Part shown: piece by piece, positions 23,834 to 56,487 of the stretch
Position numbering within the stretch: the first letter of the stretch is position 1
Layout: each line of letters starts with the position of its first letter
NCBI GenBank assembly: GCA_964480705.1
Contig: CAYZPC010000002.1
Coordinates: 22,254 to 86,253, forward strand
Origin: an uncultured archaeon
Lineage (GTDB): Archaea > Iainarchaeota > Iainarchaeia > Iainarchaeales > VGJJ01
Length of the DNA: 64,000 nt
Direction: 5' to 3'
Program-made: the position numbers and the translations under genes
Notes under the pieces: generated by a model
What the model saw: the letters and a program-made list of their open reading frames with translations, nothing else
Databases searched by the model: none
What the model was told of the DNA's origin: nothing

Positions 23834-25807
23834 CTATTTTTGGCTTTTGGGGAGCCAAATTTCATCCATTTCATCAATGGGTGACTTTTCAGACCCCCTC
23901 ATTATGTAGTTTTCAGGGGCGTCATTAGATGCGTGTTGGGAAACGTACCAGAGGCCGATAACAGCCAATAACACGAGGATGCCCAACCAAAATCCCCCGC
24001 CCTGAACAACAAATCCAGTAATGGCGTTGGCAGCTGCAACAATCGGAATCTCATTCGTGGGTGCCGCACTCCCTTGGGAGGAAGGTGCAACGTTTTCCAA
24101 TTGAATCGTGTGCGTGTTGGTGTAACCGGCACTGATTACCTGCACGATTGCAATGCTTTTTCCCGCAAACATTTCAGCAGGAATGTACACGAGTGGCGTG
24201 TCTAATCCCGTGAGTTGAATTGTTTTTGAAAATGTTTGCGTTCCCGGTTTTGCAATCACATTCAGTGTGACTTCCTGCGTGAATGTGGATTTATTTTCTA
24301 ATTGCAATGCGAATTCGCGCGCACCATACAAGTTGAGCAGTGCGGGCGCGTTCACCAATTGCACCGGCGCATCATCCAATCCTGAAAACAACACGACACT
24401 TGTTTGGTCGGGTACCGTGCATCCTTGCAAATTTGTTTTGATAGTAATAATTTGTTCCGCATTGGTGTTTGAAACAAAAAGTGTTTGCAATTTCACCGTG
24501 TCGGCGGGAATAATTATTTTGGATGGAGAAATAGTTCCGCTCGTGCTTGAAATATACAGTGTTGCATCATATGCGAGAGGGTTGTTGAACAGCACATCAA
24601 TGCTTTTTTCTCCGCGCAGCACCGTAATGGGTTTCAATCCCGCATAAAATGAATTGCAGGATGCATTTTCCGTTCCAATGAAGCGGTATTCAAATCGTTT
24701 GGCATTCACGAGGCAGCTTCCTCCGTCCGTGAAGTGTCCTTTTACCGTGAGGAATGCATTTGCATCGAATGTTCCTGCATTGGAATATCCAATCGCGTCA
24801 AATGCAATTTCTTCCGAGGATTGTGATTCAACTTTCACAGGATTTGAAACCGGCTCGAATGCTACTTGGTAATTCTTATCTGCAAACGTGTATTCGTCCA
24901 CGTAAAAATGCTGGTCGGCATTATTGATGAGTGAGAACGTGTGTGAAGTTGTTTCGCCGGCACGCACGGAGACAAATGGAATGTTCACATTCAATTCAGT
25001 GCACACACCTGTTTGCACACCCGTGTCTTCTACCGTCACATCAAATGTTTCAGAGATGTCAGAGAATGAACAATCATATCCATTTTCAAATTCTCCGCGA
25101 ATTTCTACAAACACAGGATTTGTTTCATCGTCCGACACGCCTCGCGCGTCAATTTCAATCGTGTATGAATTCGTTCGGTTATTTTGAAGATTTTTTTCAA
25201 AATCAGAATCGGAAAAAGGAGGTTCCGCAGCGGCAGTGAATGAATCGCCGTCATCAAATACATCAAATCCTTGCAGAGTAAAATCATTGGAGGAATTGTT
25301 TGTCACGCGAACCGTGTGCAAAATAGTATCGTTTTCATTCAACGTCACATCATCGGCTTCAATTTGAATGAGTGAGCAAACATCGTCGCCGTCTTGAATA
25401 GTTACGTTCACCGTGAATGTTAAATCGGAAAATTCACAATCATCATTGTCTTCAAATTCTCCGCGGAGTTGAATGCGAAACGTTTCTTGTCGGTCGCCGT
25501 TTACATCGACGGTGTCGTAGCGCAGACGCAAGTCTTCGGATTCATCTTCGTTGATTTGATCCGGAAAATCATCCACGCTGATATCCAAAAAGGGACTTGA
25601 CTCTTGGACGCGCACGTCGTCTAATTCAAAGTCATCATTTCCATTGTTTTCAATGTCAAATGTAATCAAGCGGTTGTCGCGGTCTTCTGCAAACGTAACC
25701 GAAAGAGGAGAAATATCAATATCATTACACGAACTCGCAGCATAGCTCAATGAGAGCATACTGCCGAACATCAGGAGCAAAATTCCAAAGCGAAGGGCGT
25801 GAAGCAT
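23834..25807 (-). CDS. acidic repeat-containing cell-surface protein (signal peptide, three ~120-aa Cys-pair repeats, C-terminal TM anchor + cytoplasmic tail)
   Basis: N-terminus MLHALRFGILLLMFGSMLSLSYA; recurring (L/I)RGEFE(D/N)..DC.FSD motif; C-terminal GGGFWLGILVLLAVIGLWYV then 40-aa tail; very D/E/N rich. Confidence 0.6.
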   Translation of the reverse strand: MLHALRFGILLLMFGSMLSLSYAASSCNDIDISPLSVTFAEDRDNRLITFDIENNGNDDFELDDVRVQESSPFLDISVDDFPDQINEDESEDLRLRYDTVDVNGDRQETFRIQLRGEFEDNDDCEFSDLTFTVNVTIQDGDDVCSLIQIEADDVTLNENDTILHTVRVTNNSSNDFTLQGFDVFDDGDSFTAAAEPPFSDSDFEKNLQNNRTNSYTIEIDARGVSDDETNPVFVEIRGEFENGYDCSFSDISETFDVTVEDTGVQTGVCTELNVNIPFVSVRAGETTSHTFSLINNADQHFYVDEYTFADKNYQVAFEPVSNPVKVESQSSEEIAFDAIGYSNAGTFDANAFLTVKGHFTDGGSCLVNAKRFEYRFIGTENASCNSFYAGLKPITVLRGEKSIDVLFNNPLAYDATLYISSTSGTISPSKIIIPADTVKLQTLFVSNTNAEQIITIKTNLQGCTVPDQTSVVLFSGLDDAPVQLVNAPALLNLYGAREFALQLENKSTFTQEVTLNVIAKPGTQTFSKTIQLTGLDTPLVYIPAEMFAGKSIAIVQVISAGYTNTHTIQLENVAPSSQGSAAPTNEIPIVAAANAITGFVVQGGGFWLGILVLLAVIGLWYVSQHASNDAPENYIMRGSEKSPIDEMDEIWLPKSQK

Positions 25808-25917
25808 GTATATAATATCACCCAGAACCATTAAATAAGAATACTTTTCCCGTGAATGAGTGAAGAATTAAACGAGGGAATAACGGCCATTAACGAAGTG
25901 TTTGAACGAACCCGCCC

Positions 25918-27801
25918 TTACTGCGGATGACCATCTTCTTCCATCATTTGCTTCAACCGACGCAAAATCTCTTGTTTTTCGTCATTTGTCGGTGTTTTGG
26001 AAGTTTGTGGGGCGGTGGTTAGTGCTCCTTCCAATTGGGAGGATTGTCGCTGAAGGGTGTTTTTGAGCTCGCTGGGGATTCCCACATCATTGTCTTTTTC
26101 TTCTTGGGCTTTACGGTGTTCTTTTTCTTTCTGGGATAAATAGTCCAAATCCGAGGCAGATAGTCCTTCCACATCCTCGAAGGGCAAACTCTCCAGCGCT
26201 TCTTCTTCACTAATTTCCTGCTCCATCGCCGATTCCATTCCACTTGAATGCGCGGGCGCCGAGGGGGCGGTGTAGGCATCAGCGTCTTCGACTTTCAATT
26301 CTTCATCAATAGACGCGCGTATTTTTTTCTCAGGTAAAACAGGTCGAGCCGCAGTATCTATGGTTGCAATTGAATTTTCGCGCGAGTGAGATGAATCATC
26401 AGTTGAGTGTGTTCCAAATGGTTGTTTCCACGGCATGGCATCACTCACGGAAGATGAAGGCGATTGTGCTTGGGGAGTGGTGCGTGCCACCCAGGGCGGA
26501 ACATAGGGTGCTGATTTCGCAGCAGGAGATGGTGCGGACACTCGTGTAGGAATGGTTGCGGGTGAGGGAGTTGAAATGATTGGATTTTTTTCTGCAGTTG
26601 GCAATGGTGTGTTTACGCGCGGCGCGGGAGTAAATTCTTTTTTGGTTTCGATTGGCTCGCGCGCAGTATTCATGGGCAACGGAGCAGTAGGGTAAATGGA
26701 TTTTTTTTCGTGAATGACCGCAGGCACGGGCTGAGTAAGCGCAGGCACATTTGTTTTTTCGCGTGCGATAGTTGCAATGTCAACTCGCGCAATGGAGGGA
26801 GGTGTTTGAGTAGTTTTCACGGGCGAAATGTCAGATGTTTTTTCACTTAATGGAGAAACGGTGCTCGCGGCTCGTGGAATAGGTGCGATGGGAGCAATGG
26901 GTTCTATGCTCGCGCGCGCGTTGGCAACAGCAGGGTTGCGTGCAGCCGCGGCATAAGGTGATGGAGCAGTTGATTTAATCGGGCTGGGCGAGACAGCAGG
27001 TGCAGTGGGAGGAGTTTGTTTTTCTCCAAATATTTTTTTCCAAAAAGATTGTTTGGGTGCAGATGATTTTGCTGCGAGCGTTGGCGTAGGAGATGGTTGC
27101 GCAGGCAGTCGTTGTGCGGGCGCAGGTGTTTGAGTGAGCATGCGTGCGGTTGGAATCGTTCGTTCTCCTGGAGGTAGAATGGGAGTCACGCGCGGCGCAG
27201 GGGAAGATGGGGGTGCGGCCTGTCGTGGAGAGGAAATGGGTGGAGCGAGTGGTTTGTTGGATGGAAGGGGTGTTGATGAAACGGGCGGCGCGCGCGGGGG
27301 AGCAGCGGCTTGTGCAGCAGTGGGAGATGGTTTGGGCAGGGTGGCAAGTCCGCGCTGAATGTAGGGCGGGTAAGGCATGTTGGAATAATAGTGTGGAACG
27401 CGCGGCGCGGGAGGCGCAGGTGATGAAGTTGTTGGTGTGGATGCGGGAGTGCGATTGGGTGCTTGTGGCAAGGACGGTGAAGCAAATGCTGATTTGGATG
27501 TTGTCGGATATACATTTTTGAGCGGCGCAGTGGGCGAGGGGCGAGAAGTGGTTGCGAGGTGAGTGTCCATTATTTCATCCAGTTGCTGCCGCATCGCTGC
27601 CTGTGCTTGCGTGCTGGCAACGGTAGGTTGAGTGCTTTGTAATGGAACTTTTTCTACGCGCGGTTTTCCAAACACGGCTAGAGAAATTTTTTTAGCAAAT
27701 CCTGGAGTGAAATCGTTTCGGGGCAATTCGCCGAGGCGTTGTTTCTCTCTTCTTTTTTGGAGAAACTCATTGATTTCATCCACTTCTTCTTGGGCGGGCA
27801 T
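25918..27801 (-). CDS. proline/alanine/serine/threonine-rich low-complexity protein (627 aa), charged N-terminal 50 aa, acidic C-terminal ~120 aa; no signal peptide
   Basis: 1.9-kb uninterrupted frame; PAP/APP/SPT repeats throughout; all competing ORFs in the region are short. Confidence 0.55.
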   Translation of the reverse strand: MPAQEEVDEINEFLQKRREKQRLGELPRNDFTPGFAKKISLAVFGKPRVEKVPLQSTQPTVASTQAQAAMRQQLDEIMDTHLATTSRPSPTAPLKNVYPTTSKSAFASPSLPQAPNRTPASTPTTSSPAPPAPRVPHYYSNMPYPPYIQRGLATLPKPSPTAAQAAAPPRAPPVSSTPLPSNKPLAPPISSPRQAAPPSSPAPRVTPILPPGERTIPTARMLTQTPAPAQRLPAQPSPTPTLAAKSSAPKQSFWKKIFGEKQTPPTAPAVSPSPIKSTAPSPYAAAARNPAVANARASIEPIAPIAPIPRAASTVSPLSEKTSDISPVKTTQTPPSIARVDIATIAREKTNVPALTQPVPAVIHEKKSIYPTAPLPMNTAREPIETKKEFTPAPRVNTPLPTAEKNPIISTPSPATIPTRVSAPSPAAKSAPYVPPWVARTTPQAQSPSSSVSDAMPWKQPFGTHSTDDSSHSRENSIATIDTAARPVLPEKKIRASIDEELKVEDADAYTAPSAPAHSSGMESAMEQEISEEEALESLPFEDVEGLSASDLDYLSQKEKEHRKAQEEKDNDVGIPSELKNTLQRQSSQLEGALTTAPQTSKTPTNDEKQEILRRLKQMMEEDGHPQ

Positions 27802-27890: not shown

Positions 27891-28691
27891 TTACTGTTTT
27901 CGTCCGCGCCAGGCAAATATGCCAAACACAAGGAGCACGAGCAGTCCTAACCAGGGTAGGTTGGCGCCGGTGAATAGTCCTGTGAGTGATGCAGTGGTTG
28001 CCGCGGGGGCGGGAGCAAATACTTCTTCTGGAACACTTCTTCCATCGGCCTGTCCAATGATGAGGGGATTAGGACCCGTTTCGGTTAGTTCGATGGGAAT
28101 AGGATTAGTCACGAGTGTCCCTGCGCTTGGATTGCTCGGCTTCACCGGGCCCACGACCCATAATGGGTTGAATGAAAAGAGCGGGGTGAATTCTTCTTCC
28201 GGAGAATTTTCTTCGGGTTGAATTGGGGGCTCGGGCTGCGGCTGGCAGAATACCGTATCGGCTGCTAAGCATGGATCAATGGGGCATCCGATAGTGTCAC
28301 TGACAGTACATGGTGCAGGAGATGGAGGCACGGGTCCGACGGGCACACACCCGCCAGGAACAGTGCACGGGTCATTATTTCCGGTCGAAACTATTTTGGG
28401 AGTGCGGTGTTTTCGTCCCGACTCTGCCGGAACTATTTCTACCGCGTCAACAGCAGAATCATTTATCGAATTAATTTTACTTTCATTTTGTTTTTCATCT
28501 ACGGTTTCATTTTCATTTATTTTTTCAGTTGAGTTTGTTGTTTCACTCGCGTCAGAAGAATTAGTTTCCGAAGGTGTTGCTTCGTTTTCTGCTGACGAGG
28601 AAGTAGCGTCGCTGGTCACTTCTTGCGCGTGAACAGTGGAGAATAGTGTCGCCATCACAAGTAATAGAATTACAAATGTTATTTGTCTCAT
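27891..28691 (-). CDS. secreted Ser/Thr/Pro-rich protein with Cys-Pro cluster and C-terminal TM anchor ending in RGRKQ
   Basis: Start at MRQITFVILLLVMATLFSTVHA (GGAGGT 7 nt upstream); C-terminus LPWLGLLVLLVFGIFAWRGRKQ resembles archaeosortase-type sorting signals. Confidence 0.55.
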   Translation of the reverse strand: MRQITFVILLLVMATLFSTVHAQEVTSDATSSSAENEATPSETNSSDASETTNSTEKINENETVDEKQNESKINSINDSAVDAVEIVPAESGRKHRTPKIVSTGNNDPCTVPGGCVPVGPVPPSPAPCTVSDTIGCPIDPCLAADTVFCQPQPEPPIQPEENSPEEEFTPLFSFNPLWVVGPVKPSNPSAGTLVTNPIPIELTETGPNPLIIGQADGRSVPEEVFAPAPAATTASLTGLFTGANLPWLGLLVLLVFGIFAWRGRKQ

Positions 28692-28778
28692 GCAATTACC
28701 TCCAGTAATATACCGAGTGTGCGTCAATACCTGTTTTAATGAATCGGAAAAATGGTCGTATTAAGTGCGTTAACTCGC

Positions 28779-30974: not shown

Positions 30975-31286
30975 TCACTTGTCTTTGAAATCGATTTTGA
31001 TTTGAACATCTTCGGGAATGTCAATTCGCATTACTCGGCGTAACGTACGATCGTCTGATTCGACATCGATCATTCGCTTGTGCACGCGCATCTGCCATCG
31101 CTCATATGTTTCTGTTCCACCGCCACAAGGTGACTTGCGCGTGGGGATGAGCAATTTTTTCGTGGGCAAGGGGATAACACCCGAGTGTTTTACTCCGGTT
31201 TTATCCGCAACGTCCACAATTTTTCCGCAGATGTCGGACAAGGTGTCGTAGCTCGGGCTTGTTAATGTGATTCGGGCTTTTTGCAT
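30975..31286 (-). CDS. rps10: 30S ribosomal protein uS10
   Basis: KARITLTSPSYDTLSDICGKIVDVADKTGVKHSGVIPLPTK... Confidence 0.9.
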   Translation of the reverse strand: MQKARITLTSPSYDTLSDICGKIVDVADKTGVKHSGVIPLPTKKLLIPTRKSPCGGGTETYERWQMRVHKRMIDVESDDRTLRRVMRIDIPEDVQIKIDFKDK

Positions 31287-31323: not shown

Positions 31324-32592
31324 TTATTCGCGGGGCGTGACCTTCAACACGACTCCCGCTGCGACTGTTTGTCCCATGTCTCGAACAGCAAATCGTCCGA
31401 GCGAGGGGAAGAGTTTGAATTCTTCAACCACCAAAGGCTTCTGCGGAATGATTTTCACTAACGCAGCGTCTCCGGCTTTCAAGAACTTGGGGTTCTCTTC
31501 TTGCACGGCACCCGTCTTCGGGTCCATTCGCTTCTTCAATTCTGCTAATGTGCAGGACATCTGAGCGGTGTGCATGTGGAACACAGGCGTGTATCCCACA
31601 GGGATGGCTGTCGGATGGTTCAACACGACAATTTGGGCTTCGAAGTCTTTCGCAACCATAGGGGGGTGTGTTTGGTGTCCAACCACATCTCCGCGGTTAC
31701 AATCCTTTCGTTCCAATCCACGCACGTTGAATCCGATGTTGTCACCGGGAAGTGCTTGCGGTAATTGTTCGTGGTGGGCTTCAAGAGACTTGACTTCTCC
31801 GACTGCCTTTGAGGGCATGAAGATAATCTTGTCGTTGGGCTTGATGATTCCCGTTTCTACTCGTCCAACAGGCACTGTTCCAACTCCCTTAATGGAGTAG
31901 ACATCCTGAATGGGCAAGCGCAAGGGCTTGTCGGTAGGCAATTTTGGAGCGGACAATGAATCCAATCGTTCTAACAACGTGGGACCGGTGTACCAGGGCA
32001 TGTTGGTGCTTTTCTTAGCAACATTATCTCCCATCCACGCGGACACGGGGACGACTAAGAATTGTTCGTCGCGGAATCCGGCCATCTTTACAAGTTTGGT
32101 GGCTTCTTCTTTCACGCGTTTGAAGTCTTCTTCTTTGTATCCCATTTCATCCATCTTGTTGATGGCAACGGTGAGTTGTTTGATTCCCATCACGTTGGCC
32201 AAGAAAGCGTGTTCCTTGGTTTGCATCTGAGGACCGTCTTTACACGAGATAACCAAAACAGCGGCATCTGCTTGAGATGTTCCTGTAATCATGTTCTTGA
32301 CGAAGTCTCTGTGTCCAGGCGCGTCAATAATCGTGAAGTTGTTGTTCTTTCCAGCAAATTTCTTGTAGGAAACGTCAATCGTAACTCCGCGTTCGCGTTC
32401 TTCTTTCAAATTATCCATGACGTAAGCGAAGGCAAATGAACCTTTTCCTCGGGCATCGGCTTCTTCCTTAATTTTGCGGTATTCGTTTTCCGCTAATGCT
32501 CCTGAATCGTACAGGAATCGTCCAACTAATGTGGATTTACCATGGTCGACGTGACCAATGAAAATTAAATTGATATGGGGCTTTTCTGCCAT
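31324..32592 (-). CDS. tuf: translation elongation factor 1-alpha (aEF-1A)
   Basis: [18 protein letters not shown] GTPase motifs; 422 aa. Confidence 0.95.
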
Positions 32593-32740
32593 TTTTTATT
32601 CCTCCAGAACCTTTTTGTTGTTTGCAACCAACACTAAAGGGGAATTGCCACCCTTTCCGGCGCGGTATAAAACAAAAACCCCGGGCAACCATTTAAATAG
32701 GTAATGGGCGCAAAACGCGCAAAAGACCTTCCAAAGAAGG

Positions 32741-34237
32741 TTAGGGAGCCAATTTAGTAAATGTCACGGGCACCCGTACGAGGTTTCGGCGCAAGCCCCA
32801 CCCGCCCGGGTTGTGATTGTCTTGGTTCTGCATCCAGTACAAATACACCGTGTCATTGGCCGTTTCAAAATTTCGGCTCGTGGAATCGTGGTCGATGATA
32901 GATGGATATGCTTCTTGGTCGATGCTCAATGCTTGCTGGGCGAGTGTGGGGTTGTCGCACGGCGGCCATCCTAAAACGGTTTCACGCAACAAGTGGGGTT
33001 TGCTCCACGTGATCAAATCACTAGACAGAATATACCAGAATCCGCACGTCAAAACCCCTGCGTCATTGTTCAACGTAGCTGCGCCCACGATCATGTACCG
33101 TTGCAAATACGTGTTGTACGTCAAGCTTCCATTCAGCGAACCATTTTTGGGCAGCACCACGGGAGTACAGAATAAATCCTGCGGATTTGCCGGTTCATTC
33201 GGATACGGATTAGTAAGTGGAATCGAAAAACTTTCTCCATTCCAAAATTTCCAGGAGGAAGGATCGCTCAAATTATTCGTGCGCATCACACACGCCACAT
33301 CATCTCCTCCTTTTGGATTAGACAAGCGCCGCACCATCGCGTAATAGAATCCATCTTCTCGTTTCACAATGGTGGAGGGTTCCATGTACCCGTACGGCGC
33401 GGGTCGGTCAAATTTTTGCAAGCGCTGATTGTAATTTCCCGAGTTCGCATCCCACTGCAGAGGGAGGATGGCCACCAAATGGTTGGGGCTGGTAGGTTGA
33501 GTAAACGTGTGTCCGCCGTCCGTTGAGCGCGCGTAGGAAATAAAATTATACCAGCATCGGTTGCTCGGATCGGTAACACCAGGCAGGCACAATGGAGAGT
33601 AGGGGTCGTGATACTCGTTGTGCACGAGCGCATGAATGGTTTTTCCATCTTCCGTGTATGTGGGACCGACCCACTCTTGATGGTCAAATGTTTCAACCGG
33701 CCATTTATCTCCGCTGCGCAGCACGGGTGTGCAGTCTCGGTGCAAATCATTGAAAGTAGTGCCGTACATCCAATAATTATCCGGCGCGTTTCCTGATGCG
33801 AGAACTAATTCTCCGAGATGATTGCGAAAGGGATGCGCCACCATGTCGGGCAAATCCATTTGAGCGCACGCATCTTCTTGATAATCAAAAACCGTTTCTT
33901 CGCTACCGAGGGTGAGCGTGAGTGGAACATCCGCAGCTTCTTCTGGAGTAATCACACGGCAGTCTGCGGCGCATAATATTTCATTTTCAATTCCTTCGCA
34001 CACACCATCTCCGCACACGGGAACGGGTGGAGAAACACACGTTTGAATAGTAGCAGGTTTGTTCACGGTTGTTCCGCAGGCATTGGCATCCGAGCATGCG
34101 CGTGTTTGAGAATTATTTTCGCAGGTTGACCAATCGTTACACGACCAATTTTCCGTACATGATTCCGGCGGCGTCACGCATCCGGAAATAAAAATGAGTA
34201 AAATGAATGAAAAAAATAGAATGGGGCGCGGGAACAT
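32741..34237 (-). CDS. secreted Cys-rich protein with an Asp-box (BNR-like SxDxGxTF) motif, possibly a beta-propeller glycosidase-like fold; probable lipoprotein
   Basis: Start at MFPRPILFFSFILLIFISGC (upstream 70 codons of the track ORF overlap EF-2); 12 Cys in first 80 mature residues; YARSTDGGHTF; many Trp. Confidence 0.5.
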   Translation of the reverse strand: MFPRPILFFSFILLIFISGCVTPPESCTENWSCNDWSTCENNSQTRACSDANACGTTVNKPATIQTCVSPPVPVCGDGVCEGIENEILCAADCRVITPEEAADVPLTLTLGSEETVFDYQEDACAQMDLPDMVAHPFRNHLGELVLASGNAPDNYWMYGTTFNDLHRDCTPVLRSGDKWPVETFDHQEWVGPTYTEDGKTIHALVHNEYHDPYSPLCLPGVTDPSNRCWYNFISYARSTDGGHTFTQPTSPNHLVAILPLQWDANSGNYNQRLQKFDRPAPYGYMEPSTIVKREDGFYYAMVRRLSNPKGGDDVACVMRTNNLSDPSSWKFWNGESFSIPLTNPYPNEPANPQDLFCTPVVLPKNGSLNGSLTYNTYLQRYMIVGAATLNNDAGVLTCGFWYILSSDLITWSKPHLLRETVLGWPPCDNPTLAQQALSIDQEAYPSIIDHDSTSRNFETANDTVYLYWMQNQDNHNPGGWGLRRNLVRVPVTFTKLAP

Positions 34238-34274
34238 GAGTGTTCCACGCGCTCCCTGATTATTAATGCTTGCT

Positions 34275-36467
34275 TTATTCGAGGAAGAAATGATACGCCT
34301 TGACTTCGGGGTCCATTCCTTTTCGCTTTCGCACTTCTTCAACCGTTTTGCGCTGCAATTCAGGAGGCAAAATTTCATATCCGTGATATTCAGCTGTCCA
34401 AATAACACGTCCTTGTGCCGCACCACGAATGGCTTGAGAGAATCCAATTAATTCTTTCACGGGCGCGAGTCCAATAATAATCGTCGCGTCTCCTTCGTTT
34501 TTGATTTCAGTGATTTGCGTGCGTCGCTGCTGCAATTCTTTACTCACGGCACCCATGTATTCTTCAGGGGTGGTGATTGTGAGCAATTGTTTTGGTTCTT
34601 GCAACACTGCTTTGGCCGCGAGCATACACGCGAAAATCGTGCGTGACACCACTGGAATAATTTGCGAGGGACCGCGATGGATAGCGTCTTCGTGGAGTTT
34701 TGCATCCACTAATGTGACCTTCACGCCGTGGACTTCTTCCTTGGCAAGAGGGCCGCCGTGCATAGCTTCTTGGAATCCCTGAATCACGAGTTCGCGGATT
34801 TCGTGCAAGGCTTGAATTCCTTTGGTTCCATCCACGAGCAAATTGTAGTTTTCAATCGCCCATACTTTTTTGGATTCGTCAATGTCGATTCCCGCATTCT
34901 GGAATTTTTCAATCCATTCTTTGTCTTTCAACTTGACTTTTCCTTGAACTTTGTTTTCAATTAACTTGTTTTGAATTTCGGCAGGAATGGGTTCAACCAT
35001 CATCAACAATTTGTTGTGCTTGTTGGGAGACTTTCCTTCCAATTCGGGAGAAGTTCCTGTGATGGTTTCGTGATACACCACAATCGGCGGAGACACGGTA
35101 ATTCCAACGCCGTGTGTTTTCTCAATACGGTATTGGTTGATTTCCAAGTGCAATTCTCCCATTCCCGAAAGTAAATGTTCTCCGGTTGTTTGGTTGATGC
35201 TTGCTCGAAGGTTAGGGTCTTCTTTCGTGAGCTGTCGAATCACTTCAATCAACTTAGGCAAGTCCTTTGTTTGCTTGGCTTCGATTGAAACCGTAATAAC
35301 CGGTTCAACGTTTGTTTTGAATGATTCAAATTCGCGCATTTCTTCTTCAGCAACGGTTTGTCCAGCGTATGCTTCGCGCAAACCCACAATCGCTCCAATG
35401 GAGCCGGCAGGAATGGCTTCTACTTCCACGAATTCGGGCCCCATGTACACTCCCACGCGGTTAATCTGAGCTTCTTTTTGCGACCCAACGAGTTTCACTT
35501 TCACTCCTTTTTTGAGTGTTCCAGAGTACACGCGTCCAGTGGCAATGTCTCCCGCGTGCGGGTCTACTGAAACATCGGTAACCATCATGGCAACGGGACC
35601 ATTTTGGTTGCATGCAATCATGGACTTTCCAACTTCACTTTCTTGTTCGCCTGTCCAAATAACGGGTGTGCGGTATTTTTGTGCTTCCGTGGGGTTGGGC
35701 AAATGTTTGACGACCATTTCAAAGATGGTGTCTTCGAGCGGTGATTTTTGTGCCAATTCTTTTTGCTTGTCTGTTTTCATTAAATCGTACACTTGTTTGA
35801 AATTAATTCCCGTGCGTGCCATGGAGGTGATGGACACAGCCCAGTGGTTGTATGCACTACCAAAGCAAACGCTTCCATTTCCGGGATTGACTTGCCATAA
35901 TTCTTCTTTTCCGGCGGGGGCGTTTTTTCGAATGAGATTGTTAACTTGTGTGATTGTTTTCACGAAGCGTTTTTGCATTTCGGCTTCATCCACTTGCAAT
36001 TCGTTGATGAGTCGGTCCACTTTGTTGATGAACAAGGTGGGTTTGACATTTTCGCGCAATGCTTGTCGAATAACGGTTTCGGTTTGAGGCATGACTCCTT
36101 CAACCGAGTCCACGACCAGAATGACTCCGTCCACGGCTCGCATGGCTCGGATAACTTCTCCACCGAAGTCCACGTGTCCGGGCGTGTCAATTAAGTTGAG
36201 CAAATATTGTTTTCCGTGCACCGTGGGAACAAGTGAGATGTTTGCCGCGTTGATGGTGATTCCGCGTTCTTGTTCTTGATCTTCAAAATCCATGAACTGC
36301 TGCTTTCCAGCGAGTTCTTTGTTGATGAGTCCGGCAGCCGCGATGAGGTTGTCAGAGAGAGTTGTCTTACCGTGATCGATGTGGGCAACGATTCCTAAGT
36401 TTCGGACATCTTGCTGTCCACCCATCAGTTTTTGTGCGGCTGCGGCCATTTCTTCTTTTCGACCCAT
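34275..36467 (-). CDS. fusA: translation elongation factor 2 (aEF-2)
   Basis: AHIDHGKTTL, DTPGHVDF GTPase motifs; domain IV loop DAIHRGPSQIIP. Confidence 0.95.
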   Translation of the reverse strand: MGRKEEMAAAAQKLMGGQQDVRNLGIVAHIDHGKTTLSDNLIAAAGLINKELAGKQQFMDFEDQEQERGITINAANISLVPTVHGKQYLLNLIDTPGHVDFGGEVIRAMRAVDGVILVVDSVEGVMPQTETVIRQALRENVKPTLFINKVDRLINELQVDEAEMQKRFVKTITQVNNLIRKNAPAGKEELWQVNPGNGSVCFGSAYNHWAVSITSMARTGINFKQVYDLMKTDKQKELAQKSPLEDTIFEMVVKHLPNPTEAQKYRTPVIWTGEQESEVGKSMIACNQNGPVAMMVTDVSVDPHAGDIATGRVYSGTLKKGVKVKLVGSQKEAQINRVGVYMGPEFVEVEAIPAGSIGAIVGLREAYAGQTVAEEEMREFESFKTNVEPVITVSIEAKQTKDLPKLIEVIRQLTKEDPNLRASINQTTGEHLLSGMGELHLEINQYRIEKTHGVGITVSPPIVVYHETITGTSPELEGKSPNKHNKLLMMVEPIPAEIQNKLIENKVQGKVKLKDKEWIEKFQNAGIDIDESKKVWAIENYNLLVDGTKGIQALHEIRELVIQGFQEAMHGGPLAKEEVHGVKVTLVDAKLHEDAIHRGPSQIIPVVSRTIFACMLAAKAVLQEPKQLLTITTPEEYMGAVSKELQQRRTQITEIKNEGDATIIIGLAPVKELIGFSQAIRGAAQGRVIWTAEYHGYEILPPELQRKTVEEVRKRKGMDPEVKAYHFFLE

Positions 36468-36679: not shown

Positions 36680-37294
36680 TTATCGTGAGGCGAGTGCGAT
36701 TCGCTCAACTTCATTGCGGCGTTTGATGGACATCGCGTTGTTGTCGTCTTTCGCGGCTTGAACAAGTTCTTTGGCCAATGCTTCGGCGGCAGAGGTGTTG
36801 TTGTTGAAGCTTCCGTAGAATCCGGCGAGTGCAATGTTTTTCACACTTTCATCGACGCGTTTCATGGGTGCCACATCCACGGCTTGAGAGTAAGCGACTC
36901 CGCCTTTCTTCAATCGTGTAATGTCTTCGCGAGGGGCAGCGTTTTCGACTGCGCGCACGAGAATTTGTACCGGATTTTCTTTCGTTTGAGCGTGAACAAT
37001 ATCAAAAGCATCTTCTACAATGCGCATGGCTTGTAATTTTTTTCCGCAGCTTCCTCGACCGCGAATATATTTTCCGGAGAGTTTGCGTTTTCCTTGACCG
37101 GAGCGCATAATCTTGTTGACTAAACGTTCAACAATGTTGATTTTTTCTTTTCCAAATGCGCGTGTGGCACCTTTTCCGAATGTGTGGGGAACAATTTTAG
37201 GATTGAGAGCGATTTGTCGGACGAGTGTCTGGTCCTTCATCGTGATTCCGGTCACTTCCCATTTTCCAAAAACTTTTGTTTCCATGATTTTCAC
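36680..37294 (-). CDS. rps7: 30S ribosomal protein uS7
   Basis: ...ERLVNKIMRSGQGKRKLSGKYIRG... uS7 family. Confidence 0.9.
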   Translation of the reverse strand: MKIMETKVFGKWEVTGITMKDQTLVRQIALNPKIVPHTFGKGATRAFGKEKINIVERLVNKIMRSGQGKRKLSGKYIRGRGSCGKKLQAMRIVEDAFDIVHAQTKENPVQILVRAVENAAPREDITRLKKGGVAYSQAVDVAPMKRVDESVKNIALAGFYGSFNNNTSAAEALAKELVQAAKDDNNAMSIKRRNEVERIALASR

Positions 37295-37305
37295 ACTCTC
37301 AACAA

Positions 37306-37734
37306 TTATCGTTTAACCTTCTCTTTCTTACCCGTGCGGAGCATTTCTAATGATTGTCCGTTCACATGAGTAACGCGGTATTTGACTCCCCACTGCGAAC
37401 CGTATGGTCCACCTTGAGATCCGCCAATTCCTTCAATAATAACTTCATCGTGTTCATCCACAAACTTGATGGCACCATCGCGGGGGCAGAATGCGGTGAC
37501 TTGTTTTCCGTTCTTGATAAGCTGTACACGTACGCACTTCATGATACCTGAGTGCGGCTGCTTTTGGGTGACTCCCCGTTTTTCTAACACAATGGCTTTT
37601 GCTTGGGGCGCGCCTTCTAAGGGGTCGTGCTTCTCGCGCAATCGTAGAACGCGGCGTTTGTGGTACGGATCTTTCATCCGCCATTTGGCGCGTTTGTCTT
37701 CCAATTGTCGTGCTGCAAATTCACCTAGAGCCAT
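37306..37734 (-). CDS. rps12: 30S ribosomal protein uS12
   Basis: ...[42 protein letters not shown]... Confidence 0.9.
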
Positions 37735-37788: not shown

Positions 37789-38169
37789 TTAGACGCGTTT
37801 CTTTCTCCCTTTTTTTGTTGCTTCCGCAACTGCTTCGGATGCCTGTTGATGAACGGCATCTCCTAATTGTAACACTTTACTTTTTCCTTCATCCAAAACT
37901 AAGAGCGTGGAAATAACATAGGGTTTTCCACACACGTTTCCCAATTCCAAACCGTTTCCGGCGAATTTGTATACAGGAACATTGGCCAATGAAGCAATGT
38001 GAGCCATTTCTTCTAAATCAAGCGTGGGAGCGTTTTGCGTGACAACCAATAATTGTCCGTCGCCGTGTTTGAGGGAGTGGAGACTCTCCTTTCCACCAAA
38101 TAACACTTTTCCCGTGTCAACCGCACGGCGAATTTCTTTTCCTGCTTCGGCATGATCCATACTCCACAC
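37789..38169 (-). CDS. rpl30e: 50S ribosomal protein eL30 (L30e, L7Ae-fold)
   Basis: ...IRRAVDTGKVLFGGKES...VVTQNAP...VPVYKFAGNGLELGNVCGKPYVISTLLV; canonical position after rpoA''. Confidence 0.8.
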   Translation of the reverse strand: MWSMDHAEAGKEIRRAVDTGKVLFGGKESLHSLKHGDGQLLVVTQNAPTLDLEEMAHIASLANVPVYKFAGNGLELGNVCGKPYVISTLLVLDEGKSKVLQLGDAVHQQASEAVAEATKKGRKKRV

Positions 38170-48035: not shown

Positions 48036-48568
48036 GAATGTGGAAAAAAATTCGCCGCAAGTGGGGCCGCGCCCTTTTTTTGAAAAATATTAATAAGCTC
48101 ACGCAGCGAATTGAACGCAATTATGCTGAGTTAGAACACATCTACGAACCATTAGGTGACATTGAAAATATGTTTGCGCTGAATAAAAAAATTGGCGCAG
48201 ACATACAGCAGATTGAGCACGAAAAACTGAAACGTAAAAAGGGATGGCGCGGCCTGATTCGCGCGGCGTGGGCATGGAGGGCCTATCGCGATTTGCGCGA
48301 ACAAAAATTTATCAAAAGCACCAGTTCAGAACAATACATCAAAGCTCGCGATGCATTGATTCGGATTGATTTATTGGAGCTGGGCCTGAAGAAAGAAATT
48401 CTCTCCGATAGAGAGGCATCTGAATTGTTTGTGCTTCGCCGTCAAAAAAAGAATTTTGAGAAGGCAGTTGCTAATTATCAAAAAGCGGTTGTGCTGGCAG
48501 CTGCGCGAAAAGAAAGGAAGTCTATTTCTTCGCGAAAATCTTCTCCGCACACGTCCGGGCAGAAATAA
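48017..48568 (+). CDS. hypothetical basic alpha-helical protein (183 aa)
   Basis: ORF track only; overlaps CrtYd by 19 bp and the convergent crtI 3' end by 47 bp. Confidence 0.3.
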   Translation: MVAEEMRMWKKIRRKWGRALFLKNINKLTQRIERNYAELEHIYEPLGDIENMFALNKKIGADIQQIEHEKLKRKKGWRGLIRAAWAWRAYRDLREQKFIKSTSSEQYIKARDALIRIDLLELGLKKEILSDREASELFVLRRQKKNFEKAVANYQKAVVLAAARKERKSISSRKSSPHTSGQK

Positions 48569-50072
48569 GCACCATGGGCATTCCTCCCCCTGGATGGGTG
48601 CTCGCACCCACAAAATACAAATGGTTGAATTCTTCGCTTTTTTGAGAGGGTCGGAAAACGCTGCTCTGCATGAATGTGGGAGAAAGTCCAAACGTCGCGC
48701 CGAAATTCATTCCGCTCAGCGCTTCCCACTCATTTGGAGTGAGCATTTCCTGCATGCGGATGTGTTTTTTCAAATTAGTGAGACCATTTTTTTCAAGTTG
48801 CGCAATGATTTTTTCTGCAAACTCTTTTTTTATTGAATTCCAATCGATGGGATGTCCATTTTTGGGATCGTTGGAGGGAACGGGAACGAGCACATACAGC
48901 AAATGCTTTCCCTTCGGGGCTAATGTTGAGTTGGTGCGCGAGGGCACGTTCACATAAATGCTTGGACTTGTTGAGAGTACTTTTTGTTCGAATAATTCGT
49001 GGAAGTTTTTCAAAAAATCCTCGCAGAAAAACACATTGTGATGCAGCAGCTGCGGGTAATCCGTGTCCACTCCCAGATAGAGCATGAATGCCGAGCACGT
49101 GTATTCGAGTTTTTTTAATTTTTCATCGGAATATTTTTTCCGAGATGTAGCGTGAATCAATTTTGAATACGTGGCCGGCAAATCCACATCGGACACTATT
49201 TTTTCCGCGCGAATAACTTCATTTGTATCGAGGCGAATTCCCGTTGCGGTGTTATTTTCAATCACAATCTCGGAAACATTTTTTCCATAATGGATTTTTA
49301 CTCCTAATTCGAGCGCGAGTTTTTCTATTTCGCTCACAATGGAGTATATTCCATTTTGGGGGTACCACACGCCCTGCGCTAATTCCACGTAGGGGACAAT
49401 GGTGTATGTTGCCGGCGTTAAGAGTGGGCTTTGTCCTAAGTACATGCTCTGAAAGCTGAATGCGAGTTTTATTTTTGGATTCGTAAAAAAGGTTGACATG
49501 TGGTCCCACATCGAGTGGAAGCCGTCCGCGTGTAAGAATGATAAAAATTTTCCCGAGAGGACGATATCCCAAATGGATGTGGGGGATTGGGCGATGAAAT
49601 TGGAGTAAACGTTTTCATACACCTCGTATTCGTGTTCGAGAAAGCGCAAAAACCCTCGCGCATCTTCAGGAGAAACGCGTTTTATTTCGCGGAGCATTTC
49701 GGGAAGATTCGAACTTACATCTAAGTGTTGTGCGTCCCAAAAATGCAAGCGGTACGATGGGGTGAGCAGGTTGATGGGCAGCACATCCTGCATTTTTTTT
49801 CCGCAGTAAGCAAATAACTCTTCAAATTCTCCCGGCATGAGGAGGAAAGTCGGTCCCAAATCAATGGTGTATCCTTTTACCTTTCGCTGCGCCGCTCTTC
49901 CCCCGGGAAAAGCGTTTTTTTCGTATATTTCCACGCGCTTACCCTGTTTAGCGAGGCGGCATGCGAGGGCAAGCCCCCCGAGTCCGGCGCCAATAATGAT
50001 GATTTCAGGCTCCCCTGCCGGAGAAGAGTGGAGTGTTTTGGCTCGTGTGCGGGAAGAAGATGGGGCTGCCAT
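48522..50072 (-). CDS. crtI: phytoene desaturase family FAD oxidoreductase (CrtI-like)
   Basis: IIIIGAGLGGLALACRLAKQGKRVEIYEKNAFPGGRA dinucleotide fold; ~500-aa CrtI length; downstream of crtB. Confidence 0.85.
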   Translation of the reverse strand: MAAPSSSRTRAKTLHSSPAGEPEIIIIGAGLGGLALACRLAKQGKRVEIYEKNAFPGGRAAQRKVKGYTIDLGPTFLLMPGEFEELFAYCGKKMQDVLPINLLTPSYRLHFWDAQHLDVSSNLPEMLREIKRVSPEDARGFLRFLEHEYEVYENVYSNFIAQSPTSIWDIVLSGKFLSFLHADGFHSMWDHMSTFFTNPKIKLAFSFQSMYLGQSPLLTPATYTIVPYVELAQGVWYPQNGIYSIVSEIEKLALELGVKIHYGKNVSEIVIENNTATGIRLDTNEVIRAEKIVSDVDLPATYSKLIHATSRKKYSDEKLKKLEYTCSAFMLYLGVDTDYPQLLHHNVFFCEDFLKNFHELFEQKVLSTSPSIYVNVPSRTNSTLAPKGKHLLYVLVPVPSNDPKNGHPIDWNSIKKEFAEKIIAQLEKNGLTNLKKHIRMQEMLTPNEWEALSGMNFGATFGLSPTFMQSSVFRPSQKSEEFNHLYFVGASTHPGGGMPMVLISARTCAEKIFAKK

Positions 50073-50093
50073 ACTGAAATATACTTTTGCACC

Positions 50094-50978
50094 CTATTTT
50101 GTTTTAATGTGCGCGGAAAGCGCTGTTTTTTCGGCGTGCAATAATTCTTTTTTTCGTTCATCTGAAACGTAAACGCGTTCCGTGTACACATCGTAGTTTC
50201 TTTTTTCTATCTCATTCAGTATTTCACGGTAGAATACGAGGCTGAGGCGCATTCCTAATTGTGCTTCGCGCGGAAGGTGTGCAATTCCTTCTTCGGAGCG
50301 CGTGTAATAGTCCCGCGCCCGCGTGATTTGATAATGCATCATTTTTCGAAAGGCGTCATTTTGTTCGCGCGATGCAATTTGGGAGTGAGTGTAATTGAAT
50401 TGTTTCAACTCGTCCTGGGGCAAATATACTCTTCCTGCATCGTGGTCTTCTTTTACGTCGCGCAGAATATTAGTGAGTTGCATCGCCACACCTAATTCAA
50501 TTGCATGTTCTAATGCGGAATGCGGCGCGCGGAGGACGTATGCCATGAGCAATCCGGGGATTGCTGCGGCAGAGAAGCAGTATTCGTATAGTTCGTCAAA
50601 ATTTTCATATGATTTTTTGTCTAAATCTTTTTCCAACCCATCCATTAGGCGGAAACCCCATTCGCGTGGAATAGCATACTGTCTGCACGTCTGCACAAAC
50701 GCATGCAAAATAGGGTCGGGGGAGGTTTCATTCTCCCACGCCAGAGTGAGATTGTTTCTCCACTCATTCAATCGAAGTTTTTTTTCCGCGAGCGATAAAT
50801 TTCCATCCACGATTTGATCAGTAACACGGCAAAAACCATAGGTTGCGTACGCGGCTAAGCGTTCTTTTTCAGGCAGATGCTCGGCAGCAAGGGAAAAACT
50901 AGTGGCGTGTTTTCGGCAAAGTTTTTCGGAATGAGAAAAATCAATGGCGGAAGTGTCCATTGTATTGGAAAGGCTCAT
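50094..50978 (-). CDS. crtB: phytoene synthase (squalene/phytoene synthase family)
   Basis: YCFSAAAIPG and QLTNILRDVKEDHDAGRVYLP motifs. Confidence 0.85.
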   Translation of the reverse strand: MSLSNTMDTSAIDFSHSEKLCRKHATSFSLAAEHLPEKERLAAYATYGFCRVTDQIVDGNLSLAEKKLRLNEWRNNLTLAWENETSPDPILHAFVQTCRQYAIPREWGFRLMDGLEKDLDKKSYENFDELYEYCFSAAAIPGLLMAYVLRAPHSALEHAIELGVAMQLTNILRDVKEDHDAGRVYLPQDELKQFNYTHSQIASREQNDAFRKMMHYQITRARDYYTRSEEGIAHLPREAQLGMRLSLVFYREILNEIEKRNYDVYTERVYVSDERKKELLHAEKTALSAHIKTK

Positions 50979-51053
50979 TGATACTATGTGGGTTTTTGAT
51001 TTAATAAAAGTGCTCTCGCACGCGCGAGAAGATGCGTGAATTAGAATGGGGAA

Positions 51054-52253
51054 TTACCACCCGTAATGGGCAGCGCGCGAGTATCCGAATGCGAGGAATG
51101 CATCCACCACGCCTTTTTGGTATAAGTCATAGTTGTGCGAGAGCACGTTGAATCCGACTTTTGCTTTATCCACGGCAGTCAGGTTGGATAATTCTTGAGG
51201 CATTAAGTGTCCAATGCGGTTTAACTCGTCTTCGGTAAAATTGTAGAGCGCATTTTTTCCTTTGATTATTTTTCCATAGGAGGGGAATTCATTGCGCCAC
51301 TTTTTTTCATACGTTGACAAAAAAGTTTTTGAAAAATTGGAATGAGTGAATGCGTCTTTTGCTACTTCCGCAGCCATGCGTCCGCTGACTAATCCTAATT
51401 GGGTTCCCCCTTCAAATAGTGGAGAAGTGAATCCCGCCGCATCGCCAATCAAAATGATTCCATCTCCCACCGTGTTTTGCACGGGTCCCGATGAGGGAAT
51501 GGGTCCGCCGAATGTTTTCACTATTTTTTTGTTTTGCCAATTCATTTCTTTCACGAATTGGTCCAAATACATTTTTGCTTTGGTGATATCAGTAGTCACA
51601 AGCCCCACATTGGCTCGCCCATCATTTTTGGGAATCATCCACAAATAGCCATGGGGAGAGAGTCGAGGCCACAAATAAAAGTCTAAATAATTTTCATGTG
51701 GAATATCAAGCATTTCATATTGGATTCCTGTCGTGACACTAAAGCGTGGGTTCATGTTAAGCATGCGGTTGGCCACTCCCGCGGCGCCGGAAGCGTCGAT
51801 AACCATGCGTGCGCGCACCATTCCTTGAGATGTTTGAATCTCCCACACATCATTTGTTCGGGCTAAACTGGTTACGCGCGTGGATAATGATAAGTGTGTG
51901 CCCGCATTCTGTGCCTCGTTTGAAAGCCATTTTTCAAACGCGTGTTTCTCTAAAACATATCCGGCTTCAGTTAATTTCACTTTGTGCGAGTCGGGAAAAA
52001 TAACATTGACTCCTTTGACCGGAAGGGCGATGACTTCTTTGGGAAATTTCATGTTGATGCGAACTTCAGCCATTTCACTTAAGCATTCCCCGCAGTGCAC
52101 CGGGTCTCCCACGCTGGCGTGTTCTTCAAGAATTACTGTCTTGAGCCCCATTTTAGACGCATGAATCGCCGCACTTCCCCCAGCGGGGCCTGCACCAATG
52201 ATGGCAATATCATACAGTGTCTGCGTGTCTAAGGTCATAGTATCATCGGCCAT
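51054..52253 (-). CDS. geranylgeranyl reductase family FAD-dependent oxidoreductase
   Basis: YDIAIIGAGPAGGSAA, HCGECLS motif characteristic of archaeal GGR. Confidence 0.8.
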   Translation of the reverse strand: MADDTMTLDTQTLYDIAIIGAGPAGGSAAIHASKMGLKTVILEEHASVGDPVHCGECLSEMAEVRINMKFPKEVIALPVKGVNVIFPDSHKVKLTEAGYVLEKHAFEKWLSNEAQNAGTHLSLSTRVTSLARTNDVWEIQTSQGMVRARMVIDASGAAGVANRMLNMNPRFSVTTGIQYEMLDIPHENYLDFYLWPRLSPHGYLWMIPKNDGRANVGLVTTDITKAKMYLDQFVKEMNWQNKKIVKTFGGPIPSSGPVQNTVGDGIILIGDAAGFTSPLFEGGTQLGLVSGRMAAEVAKDAFTHSNFSKTFLSTYEKKWRNEFPSYGKIIKGKNALYNFTEDELNRIGHLMPQELSNLTAVDKAKVGFNVLSHNYDLYQKGVVDAFLAFGYSRAAHYGW

Positions 52254-56486: not shown

Positions 56487-56487
56487 A

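Follow-up and report, generated by a model that had tools for sequence, protein, structure and literature searches.

A predicted five-bladed propeller protein of glycosidase-like fold encoded between EF-2 and EF-1alpha in an Iainarchaeota genome

What is a gene for a secreted protein doing between the genes of two translation elongation factors? The junction of the EF-2 and EF-1alpha genes is usually regarded as fixed, and in a 64,000-nucleotide stretch of DNA from an uncultured archaeon (contig CAYZPC010000002.1, positions 22,254 to 86,253; hereafter the window, to whose own positions all coordinates refer unless another locus is named) a 498-aa gene, here termed X, separates the two. The closest named genome is a Candidatus Iainarchaeum metagenome-assembled genome (MAG; phylum Iainarchaeota, DPANN archaea), whose EF-2 is 97% identical to that of the window. 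We find that X is a real, conserved gene, unusual in its location and ordinary in the kind of protein that it encodes. On balance, we favor a reading in which X specifies an exported, anchored and glycosidase-like propeller, which is an old acquisition from bacteria parked at an operon boundary and has no role in translation. A preliminary description of the gene, made from the letters alone, is partly confirmed as an observation and partly supported in its interpretation.

The propeller domain and its Asp-boxes

32741..34237, minus strand: gene X (coding sequence including the stop codon), 498 aa from ATG, encoding the secreted propeller protein; based on the open reading frame (ORF) list and the sequence, 450 homologs and a ratio of non-synonymous to synonymous substitution rates (dN/dS) of 0.086 against the closest relative, locus L073
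32744..33931, minus strand: five-bladed beta-propeller domain, residues 103-498; based on AlphaFold2 (predicted local distance difference test, pLDDT, mostly above 90), strand pattern and Foldseek
33503..33526, minus strand: full Asp-box S238-T-D-G-G-H-T-F245, in the third-fourth strand loop of blade 2
33005..33025, minus strand: short Asp-box S405-S-D-L-I-T-W411, in the third-fourth strand loop of blade 4

The AlphaFold2 model of X, built on 60 sequences (mean pLDDT 87.9, predicted TM-score 0.78), comprises a signal helix, a small beta module (residues 31-66), a poorly defined linker that includes the motif CGDGVCEG and, from about residue 105, an all-beta domain. Reading the DSSP string of the model, we count five four-stranded blades (135-174, 187-257, 282-339, 371-419 and 441-495) in a ring closed by the N-terminal strands 106-117. 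The large domain is thus predicted to be a propeller, and it is Trp-rich, as first described (12 Trp in 398 aa, 3.0%). Of its eight Cys, C124, C169, C228 and C316 are each conserved in at least 91% of homologs.

Asp-boxes follow the consensus (S/t)-x-(D/n)-x-G-x-(T/s)-(W/f/y) and sit in the hairpin that joins the two outer blade strands (PMC2716378; Quistgaard and Thirup 2009), with a short version, the 's-Asp-box' S/t-x-D/n-x-x-x-W/f/y, being typical of the five-bladed propellers of the glycoside hydrolase (GH) families GH32 and GH43 (PMC2716378). X carries one full and one short Asp-box, both of which agree with the consensus and are conserved family-wide. The full version lies between strands 229-238 and 254-257 and is well kept in an alignment of 245 divergent homologs, which also underlies the residue counts given below (S 99%, D 89%, G 93%); only 0.9% of shuffles of the domain yield an S-x-D-x-G-x-T-F pattern. 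Consensus, shuffling and conservation all agree with the preliminary description, which had singled out this stretch, YARSTDGGHTF, as an Asp-box. A genuine second copy, the short Asp-box SSDLITW between strands 396-405 and 415-419 (S 99%, D 97%, W 100%), had been overlooked. The segments TEDGKTI (195-201) and REDGFYY (293-299), previously listed as weak Asp-boxes, are turns that link a blade's first and second strands, and we discount them because they lack the Ser and the aromatic residue and occupy the wrong hairpin, Asp-boxes being found between the third and fourth strands.

A large family with near-invariant polar residues

The X domain belongs to a large, mostly bacterial and uncharacterized family for which neither Pfam nor NCBIfam has a model. 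A word-indexed search recovered 450 homologs and an exhaustive search 4,535 cluster representatives (50% identity) at E <= 0.001, 422 of them below 1e-30, with only the C-terminal 395 aa or so of X being widely shared among relatives. These are spread over many bacterial phyla, the Candidate Phyla Radiation (CPR) and DPANN. The X sequence has no match in Pfam, NCBIfam or the PDB sequences, the family profile has none in the PDB sequences, and tblastn of the propeller against phage records also yields none. In bacteria, the propeller is combined with sorting tails of the type IX secretion system (T9SS; PF18962), with Big_1/Big_2 domains and, in proteins of about 840 aa, with a weak match to GH26; these fusions point to secreted carbohydrate-active proteins.

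33845..33847, minus strand: Asp131 codon, shortly ahead of the innermost strand of blade 1; candidate nucleophile or catalytic base, with D in 242 of 245 homologs
33614..33616, minus strand: Glu208 codon, in the motif H-N-E-Y-H-D-P; E in 245 of 245 homologs; candidate catalytic acid
32891..32893, minus strand: Asp449 codon, in the motif Y-P-S-I-I-D-H; D in 241 of 245 homologs; candidate third active-site acid

These acids, which fall in blades 1, 2 and 5, are accompanied by R319 (245/245) and R488 (243/245), by further conserved polar residues (H206 95%, D128 91%, R138 90%) and by several Trp and Tyr that are also near-invariant. We regard D131, E208, D449, R319 and R488 as the candidate signature of an active site.

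Relationship to known propeller glycosidases

Foldseek comparison of the X model with the PDB returned 202 matches at E <= 0.001, among them the following:

E 1.6e-10: endo-alpha-D-arabinanase EndoMA1, 8IC1/8HHV (GH183), the top match
E 7e-9: GH159 (7ZEI)
E 2e-8: the uncharacterized protein Dfer_1899 (5HX0)
E about 1e-8 to 1e-6: GH62, GH117 and GH43
E 1e-7 to 1e-6: sialidases (Neu2 and the M. viridifaciens enzyme)

Target-normalized TM-scores are 0.58-0.62 for the small five-bladed enzymes and 0.46 for the sialidases. In the viral structure library, the second-best match is the 'putative lysin' of Gordonia phage GMA6 (KR063280), whose residues 710-1026 form a strong DUF4185 domain (PF13810, 196.6 bits); this domain is PhageGH4185, an experimentally shown endo-D-arabinanase of GH183 (PMC10115798). 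PF13810 also gives sub-threshold matches in 8 of 60 X-family members (best E 3e-5). Since the PDB match, the viral match and these weak profile matches agree, GH183 is the nearest characterized family. X shares with GH183 proteins (EndoMA1, the GMA6 lysin, Rv3707c) a secreted or cell-wall-directed nature, an Asp-box blade that aligns, an invariant Asp just before the innermost strand of blade 1 (matched by eye) and a five-bladed propeller, which is predicted for X and reported for EndoMA1 (PMC10509167).

The differences are nonetheless substantial. PF13810 does not match X itself even at E 1, and the best-scoring family member (P0119) reaches 29.2 bits against a gathering cut-off of 39.5 bits, over profile positions 128-246 of 309 only. 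When the 245 X-family sequences were compared by hhalign with a GH183 profile made of GMA6 and 120 DUF4185 proteins, itself of low diversity (effective sequence number, Neff, 2.5), 66 columns around the Asp-box blade were aligned (E 0.0042, probability 8%); in global mode nothing was found, and the match to the single GMA6 domain was too weak (E 0.2). Catalysis in GH183 depends on two Asp residues, 17-18 positions apart and close to the N-terminus of the domain, and on an essential Glu (PMC10509167, PMC10115798), the Asp pair being D33/D51 in EndoMA1. In GMA6, this pair is visible as ATD-LG...FGD-TW. D131 of X can be placed by eye on the GH183 nucleophile, whereupon N150 occupies the acid/base position; on this placement the Asp...Asp pair is not kept, and E208 and D449 are invariant residues peculiar to the X family. 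Moreover, the spread of GH183 is mostly actinobacterial (PMC10509167), as opposed to the many phyla of the X family. By sequence criteria, the X family is outside GH183/DUF4185; in structure, it is distantly related to the propeller glycosidases of the furanosidase type, GH183 being the nearest of them.

With the furanosidases of GH43, GH62, GH117, GH159 and GH32, X has in common the fold (target-normalized TM-scores 0.5-0.62), a short or full Asp-box in the third-fourth strand loop (PMC2716378) and acidic residues on inner strands, which are catalytic in those enzymes. It differs from them in matching none of their Pfam models and in the larger size of its domain (about 395 versus about 300 aa); further, the GH43 triad (Asp/Asp/Glu) lies in blades 1, 3 and 4, with no obvious mapping onto the conserved acids of X. 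Membership in GH43, GH62 or GH32 was therefore rejected for want of a Pfam match and of the triad pattern, leaving a resemblance at the level of the fold only.

The preliminary description had proposed a sialidase or glycosidase-like beta-propeller. The glycosidase-like propeller stands as a high-confidence prediction, whereas the sialidase/BNR assignment is not supported, as the model of X has five blades and is best matched by five-bladed enzymes. GH33 sialidases are six-bladed BNR propellers, typically with 3-5 full Asp-boxes in successive blades and an F/Y-R-I-P motif. X shares with them a canonical S-x-D-x-G-x-T-W/F Asp-box in a propeller glycosidase scaffold but has a single full copy, no [FYW]R[IVL]P motif and no match to the Pfam sialidase/BNR_2 models; among 60 relatives, only one matches the 12-residue BNR repeat model, at E 0.18.

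Export signal and Cys-rich modules

34178..34237, minus strand: signal peptide, residues 1-20, ending in the lipobox ISGC; based on a pattern match, a helix (7-18) in the model and Cys in 9 of 11 full-length relatives
34022..34171, minus strand: six-Cys, Trp-containing module, residues 23-72; based on invariant columns; a small beta module in the model, pLDDT about 90
33959..34015, minus strand: four-Cys mini-module CGDGVCEG...C..DC, residues 75-93; kept in most full-length relatives, with low to medium model confidence

The N-terminus of X, MFPRPILFFSFILLIFISGC, contains after its hydrophobic core the residues ISGC (17-20), which fit the lipobox pattern [LVI][ASTVI][GAS]C and bear out the lipoprotein-like signal (FISGC) noted at the outset; in 9 of the 11 full-length relatives, a Cys likewise comes straight after the hydrophobic region. 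A hydrophobic N-terminal segment followed by I-S-G-C is what X shares with the lipobox lipoproteins of bacteria and haloarchaea, and the mature protein presumably starts with Cys20 as its lipid-anchored residue. The product looks secreted and Cys-rich, as had been stated, with the count of 12 Cys to be corrected to 11 in residues 20-93, one of which is the Cys of the lipobox.

The six-Cys module has the pattern C27-x5-C33-x5-C39-x8-C48-x5-C54-x12-C67, and W31, W36, Q44 and R46 are also conserved in the full-length relatives. Arrays of 6-10 copies of the module in tandem are found in other proteins, which carry archaeal S-layer, CARDB or Kelch domains. No Pfam model matches the module, and it is a generic extracellular module, widespread as a tandem repeat of archaeal surface proteins. 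Proteins with the module (W..W..C...QTR.C) include P0143, P0158, P0163, P0170, P0180, P0203 and P0231. A separate model of residues 21-100 (pLDDT 82.5) finds no significant PDB match by Foldseek (best E 1.5, probability 0.25), and the top-ranked of these non-significant matches (C8, C9, C6 and MIC2) all contain thrombospondin type-1 repeats (TSP1/TSR). The repeats share with the X module six Cys in about 45 aa and the pattern W..W..C...Q-T-R-x-C, but X lacks a Pfam TSP_1 match and the Trp spacing is not the same; we consider the resemblance suggestive only. A DsbA-like thiol-disulfide oxidoreductase is encoded elsewhere in the window (62962-63765, minus strand) and fits with an organism that exports disulfide-rich proteins such as X.

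Genes and transcription signals around X

34275..36467, minus strand: EF-2, upstream neighbor of X; Pfam GTP_EFTU, EFG_III, EFG_IV and EFG_C
36680..37294, minus strand: S7
37306..37734, minus strand: S12
37789..38169, minus strand: L7Ae-family protein
31324..32592, minus strand: EF-1alpha, downstream neighbor of X; Pfam
30975..31286, minus strand: S10, after EF-1alpha; Pfam
34259..34267, minus strand: TATA-like box ATTAATAAT, starting about -29/-30 and ending at -22 from the ATG of X, inside the EF-2/X spacer
32709..32740, minus strand: terminator-like hairpin CCTTCTTTGGAAGG and then two T-runs, immediately past the X stop codon; read from the sequence
32593..32701, minus strand: EF-1alpha upstream region, with the box CCTATTTAAAT (32691-32701) and a leader, about 80 nt long, that has a GGAGG Shine-Dalgarno sequence at its end

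On the minus strand, the order is L7Ae-family protein, S12, S7, EF-2, X, EF-1alpha and S10, and the placement of a 498-aa gene between the elongation factors was correctly described: 37 nt (34238-34274) separate X from EF-2 and 148 nt from EF-1alpha. A longer version of X starting at a TTG (to 34447) is not credible, given its overlap with EF-2 and the lack of conservation of the added residues in relatives; an antisense ORF (32817-33344, plus strand) and an out-of-frame ORF (33364-33750, minus strand) inside X were set aside as by-products of its coding frame.

Transcription signals were read by comparing orthologous loci. In all five that were compared, an A/T-rich TATA-like box is found 21-22 nt before the ATG of X. 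For genes of the window that begin a unit, a box of this kind with its start at -28 to -32 is typical, while those internal to ribosomal operons have GGTGA or GGAGG instead. The EF-2/X spacer is identical to that of L073 at 37 of 37 positions, against a divergence of about 40% at synonymous sites of the genes on either side. Downstream, the hairpin and T-runs could serve as a terminator of X, because the archaeal RNA polymerase is known to use oligo-T termination signals. EF-1alpha in turn has its own box and leader (TATACCGCGCCGGAAAGGGTGGC...CCCTTTAGTGTTGGTTG.CAAACAACAAAAAGG...GGAGG), which are nearly invariant in five loci whatever gene lies upstream (in relatives, L073:5060-5170, L001:7630-7779, L004:8480-8606 and L013:4140-4270), while the coding genes of these loci diverge at 20-40% of synonymous sites. 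The leader has no match in Rfam, and two small hairpins are predicted in it, with no covariation; it may be an unrecognized regulatory leader of the EF-1alpha-S10 unit. A scan for bacterial sigma-70 promoters and intrinsic terminators gave no more than chance, its model being bacterial and not applicable to an archaeon. Taken together, these signals suggest that S12-S7-EF-2 and EF-1alpha-S10 are separate units in this lineage, and that X would be an independent unit at their boundary, served by a leaderless-type promoter and a terminator of its own.

The same position in relatives and the history of X

The inter-factor position is shared with relatives: X directly follows EF-2 in seven distinct lineages (the window and six others, with X identities to that of the window of 91% in L073, 70% in L001, 64% in L074, 64% in L004, 56% in L005 and 53% in L003), and the gap is 36-37 nt in four of the seven. 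Neither outcome named beforehand as refuting the description, a fold prediction lacking a propeller or absence of the gene from all relatives, came about. EF-1alpha comes directly after X in three of the loci only (window, L073, L001). In L004, the two genes are separated by a 185-aa ORF, and in L013 by a 905-aa ORF and other sequence; in L003 and L005, other genes follow X, the one in L005 being EamA. The small ORFs found after X in other loci are not shared with the window. Some relatives with an EF-2 about 90% identical have no X after it and carry methyltransferase-like or EamA-like cargo in its place (a 254-aa ORF in L061, an EamA-like gene in L066), and the more distant L067 retains the classical EF-2/EF-1alpha adjacency. 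The functional link of X to the elongation factors that had been implied is not supported, in view of this exchangeable cargo, the apparent promoter and terminator of X itself and the separate promoter and leader of EF-1alpha.

In a neighbor-joining tree, the post-EF-2 copies form one clade (bootstrap 77%, with an inner group at 100%), nested in a mainly bacterial family that also holds CPR and other DPANN copies. X is far faster evolving than its neighbors (53-70% versus 86-97% identity across lineages). Its dN/dS against L073 is 0.086 overall and 0.064 for the propeller, which shows that it is clearly constrained, under purifying selection (EF-2, 0.024; EF-1alpha, 0.027). The GC content of X, overall and at third codon positions (GC3), is only slightly above that of its neighbors, and a search for footprints of mobile elements flanking X found only short chance repeats.

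Several further observations concern these related loci. The 905-aa ORF of L013 (856-3570) has an archaeal pilin-type (class III) signal, GQGALEYLLLIAG; genes for surface proteins accumulate in this interval. A second, divergent propeller copy (38% identity) is encoded elsewhere in the genome of the MAG to which L012 belongs (L020, 5105-5329 and 7001-8209), with a copy of the Cys-rich module 1.7 kb upstream, suggestive of a larger multidomain paralog. The EF-2 of one related archaeon (L005/L006/L012, 3208-5964) is 918 aa long and has an intein (PF14890) near its N-terminus; that of another (L064, 3385-6048) is interrupted by about 1.5 kb at the same place. Between S7 and EF-2, L005 (1456-3094) has three small, basic and mutually related ORFs (104, 191 and 179 aa) of no Pfam family, which are another break in the conserved cluster.

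Proposed function and alternatives

We propose that X is exported through its signal peptide and probably tethered to the membrane as a lipoprotein by Cys20 of the lipobox, with disulfides likely stabilizing the exported protein. The two small Cys-rich modules would act as a stalk or spacer carrying the five-bladed propeller, which is most likely a glycoside hydrolase with a candidate axial pocket formed by D131, E208 and D449 together with R319, R488 and H206. This pocket could cleave an extracellular or cell-surface polysaccharide, possibly a glycan containing furanosides. The gene was probably gained once from bacteria by an ancestor of the clade, would have landed between the S12-S7-EF-2 and EF-1alpha-S10 units and been inherited there under purifying selection, such that its position would be a historical accident at a permissive site and not a link to translation.

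Several points weigh against this proposal. No member of the X family has a known enzymatic activity, and no characterized member was found. Three bacterial gene neighborhoods of homologs have no recognizable polysaccharide-utilization context and so do not point to a substrate. At the sequence level, the connection to GH183 is marginal, as the hhalign comparison attests, and the residue matching the GH183 acid/base varies among the 245 homologs (N in 133, H in 43 and D in 38). That these archaea process lipoproteins is assumed. The tree gives only 53% support to the sister link with a T9SS-tailed bacterial clade, and the direction of transfer is tentative. Finally, no terminator is visible between EF-2 and X, which would allow read-through from the EF-2 operon.

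Of the alternatives, the one with the most to commend it is that X is a non-catalytic surface lectin or adhesin, whose propeller attaches to the glycans of particles or of a host or partner cell and whose Cys modules form the stalk. We rate this as distinctly the weaker idea, though one to be taken seriously: the Cys-rich module is found in tandem in S-layer, CARDB and Kelch surface proteins, the family has no known activity and does not conserve the GH183 acid/base position, its bacterial members are found amid other T9SS surface proteins and not in sugar-utilization loci, and such a role would suit the contact-dependent DPANN lifestyle. Against it, the 245 divergent homologs keep a fully invariant Glu and two near-invariant Asp along with Arg and His, which is the pattern of a catalytic center, the top structural matches are all enzymes, the fusion to a GH26-like domain suggests enzymatic teamwork, and Iainarchaeota may be free-living (PMC6349945). 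An enzyme of a more specific kind, namely a true but highly divergent GH183 (DUF4185) member acting as a retaining endo-alpha-D-arabinofuranase on D-arabinan, e.g., of actinobacterial cell walls, appears improbable to us. EndoMA1 is indeed the best PDB match and the GMA6 lysin the second-best viral match, PF13810 is detectable in 8 of 60 members, the Asp-box blades align and D131 falls by eye on the nucleophile; yet X has no PF13810 match, its best relative stays at 29.2 of the 39.5 bits needed with a partial profile, profile-profile probability is 8%, the second catalytic Asp is not conserved, and GH183 is not clearly singled out, as the Foldseek E-values of GH159, GH62, GH117 and GH43 lie within three orders of magnitude.

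Two other readings have far less in their favor. That X is tied to the elongation-factor cluster, either through co-transcription with EF-2, which would make its level follow growth rate, or through a role connected to translation, is very unlikely in our estimation. The adjacency to EF-2 in seven lineages, the near-constant gap in four of them and the lack of an obvious intervening terminator would be consistent with such a tie, but the product is exported, a TATA-like box stands at leaderless spacing before X, close relatives (EF-2 about 90% identical) carry a methyltransferase-like or EamA-like gene instead, L013 has other cargo, and X evolves far faster than its neighbors. The six-bladed BNR/Asp-box sialidase (GH33-like) is largely refuted here and can be given hardly any credence: a canonical Asp-box and the presence of Neu2 and the M. 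viridifaciens enzyme among the Foldseek matches (E about 1e-7 to 1e-6) are set against five blades, one full Asp-box, no FRIP, no Pfam match and the lower TM-score of 0.46 versus 0.58-0.62 for five-bladed enzymes.

The glycosidase-like propeller can also be taken further, in a tentative extension that we hold to be rather less probable than the proposal itself: the domain may found a new CAZy family with its own Asp131/Glu208/Asp449 center and several thousand clusters in bacteria, CPR and DPANN, of which the lipid-anchored Iainarchaeota copy would be the main tool for cutting an abundant environmental or host-surface glycan, with EF-2 read-through tying its expression to growth.

Other features of the window

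23834-25831, 25918-27801 and 27891-28727, minus strand: two large ORFs (665 and 627 aa) with essentially no Pfam match beside a secreted protein, which is low-complexity and Ser/Thr/Pro-rich and has a C-terminal hydrophobic anchor; all three adjoin the L3 ribosomal operon
48522-52253 and 54130-58200, minus strand: carotenoid-type genes (phytoene synthase, phytoene desaturase-like, geranylgeranyl reductase/lycopene cyclase-like), together with fumarase, succinate dehydrogenase/fumarate reductase subunits and a superoxide dismutase-like protein

The ORFs of the first set may be further surface proteins. The metabolic genes of the second point to a metabolism richer than that of most DPANN archaea.

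Significance

The type of protein and horizontal transfer into DPANN genomes are already familiar, and no general principle is changed by these findings. For archaeal genomics, they mark the EF-2/EF-1alpha junction of Iainarchaeota as an operon boundary that accepts and exchanges cargo genes, several of which are for surface proteins. For enzyme discovery, X is a clean full-length representative of a large uncharacterized family just outside GH183, and the combination of a family without a model and sharply defined invariant residues makes it a good candidate for biochemical characterization. For the biology of DPANN archaea, X is a conserved surface protein of bacterial type, with a possible part in glycan foraging or cell contact.

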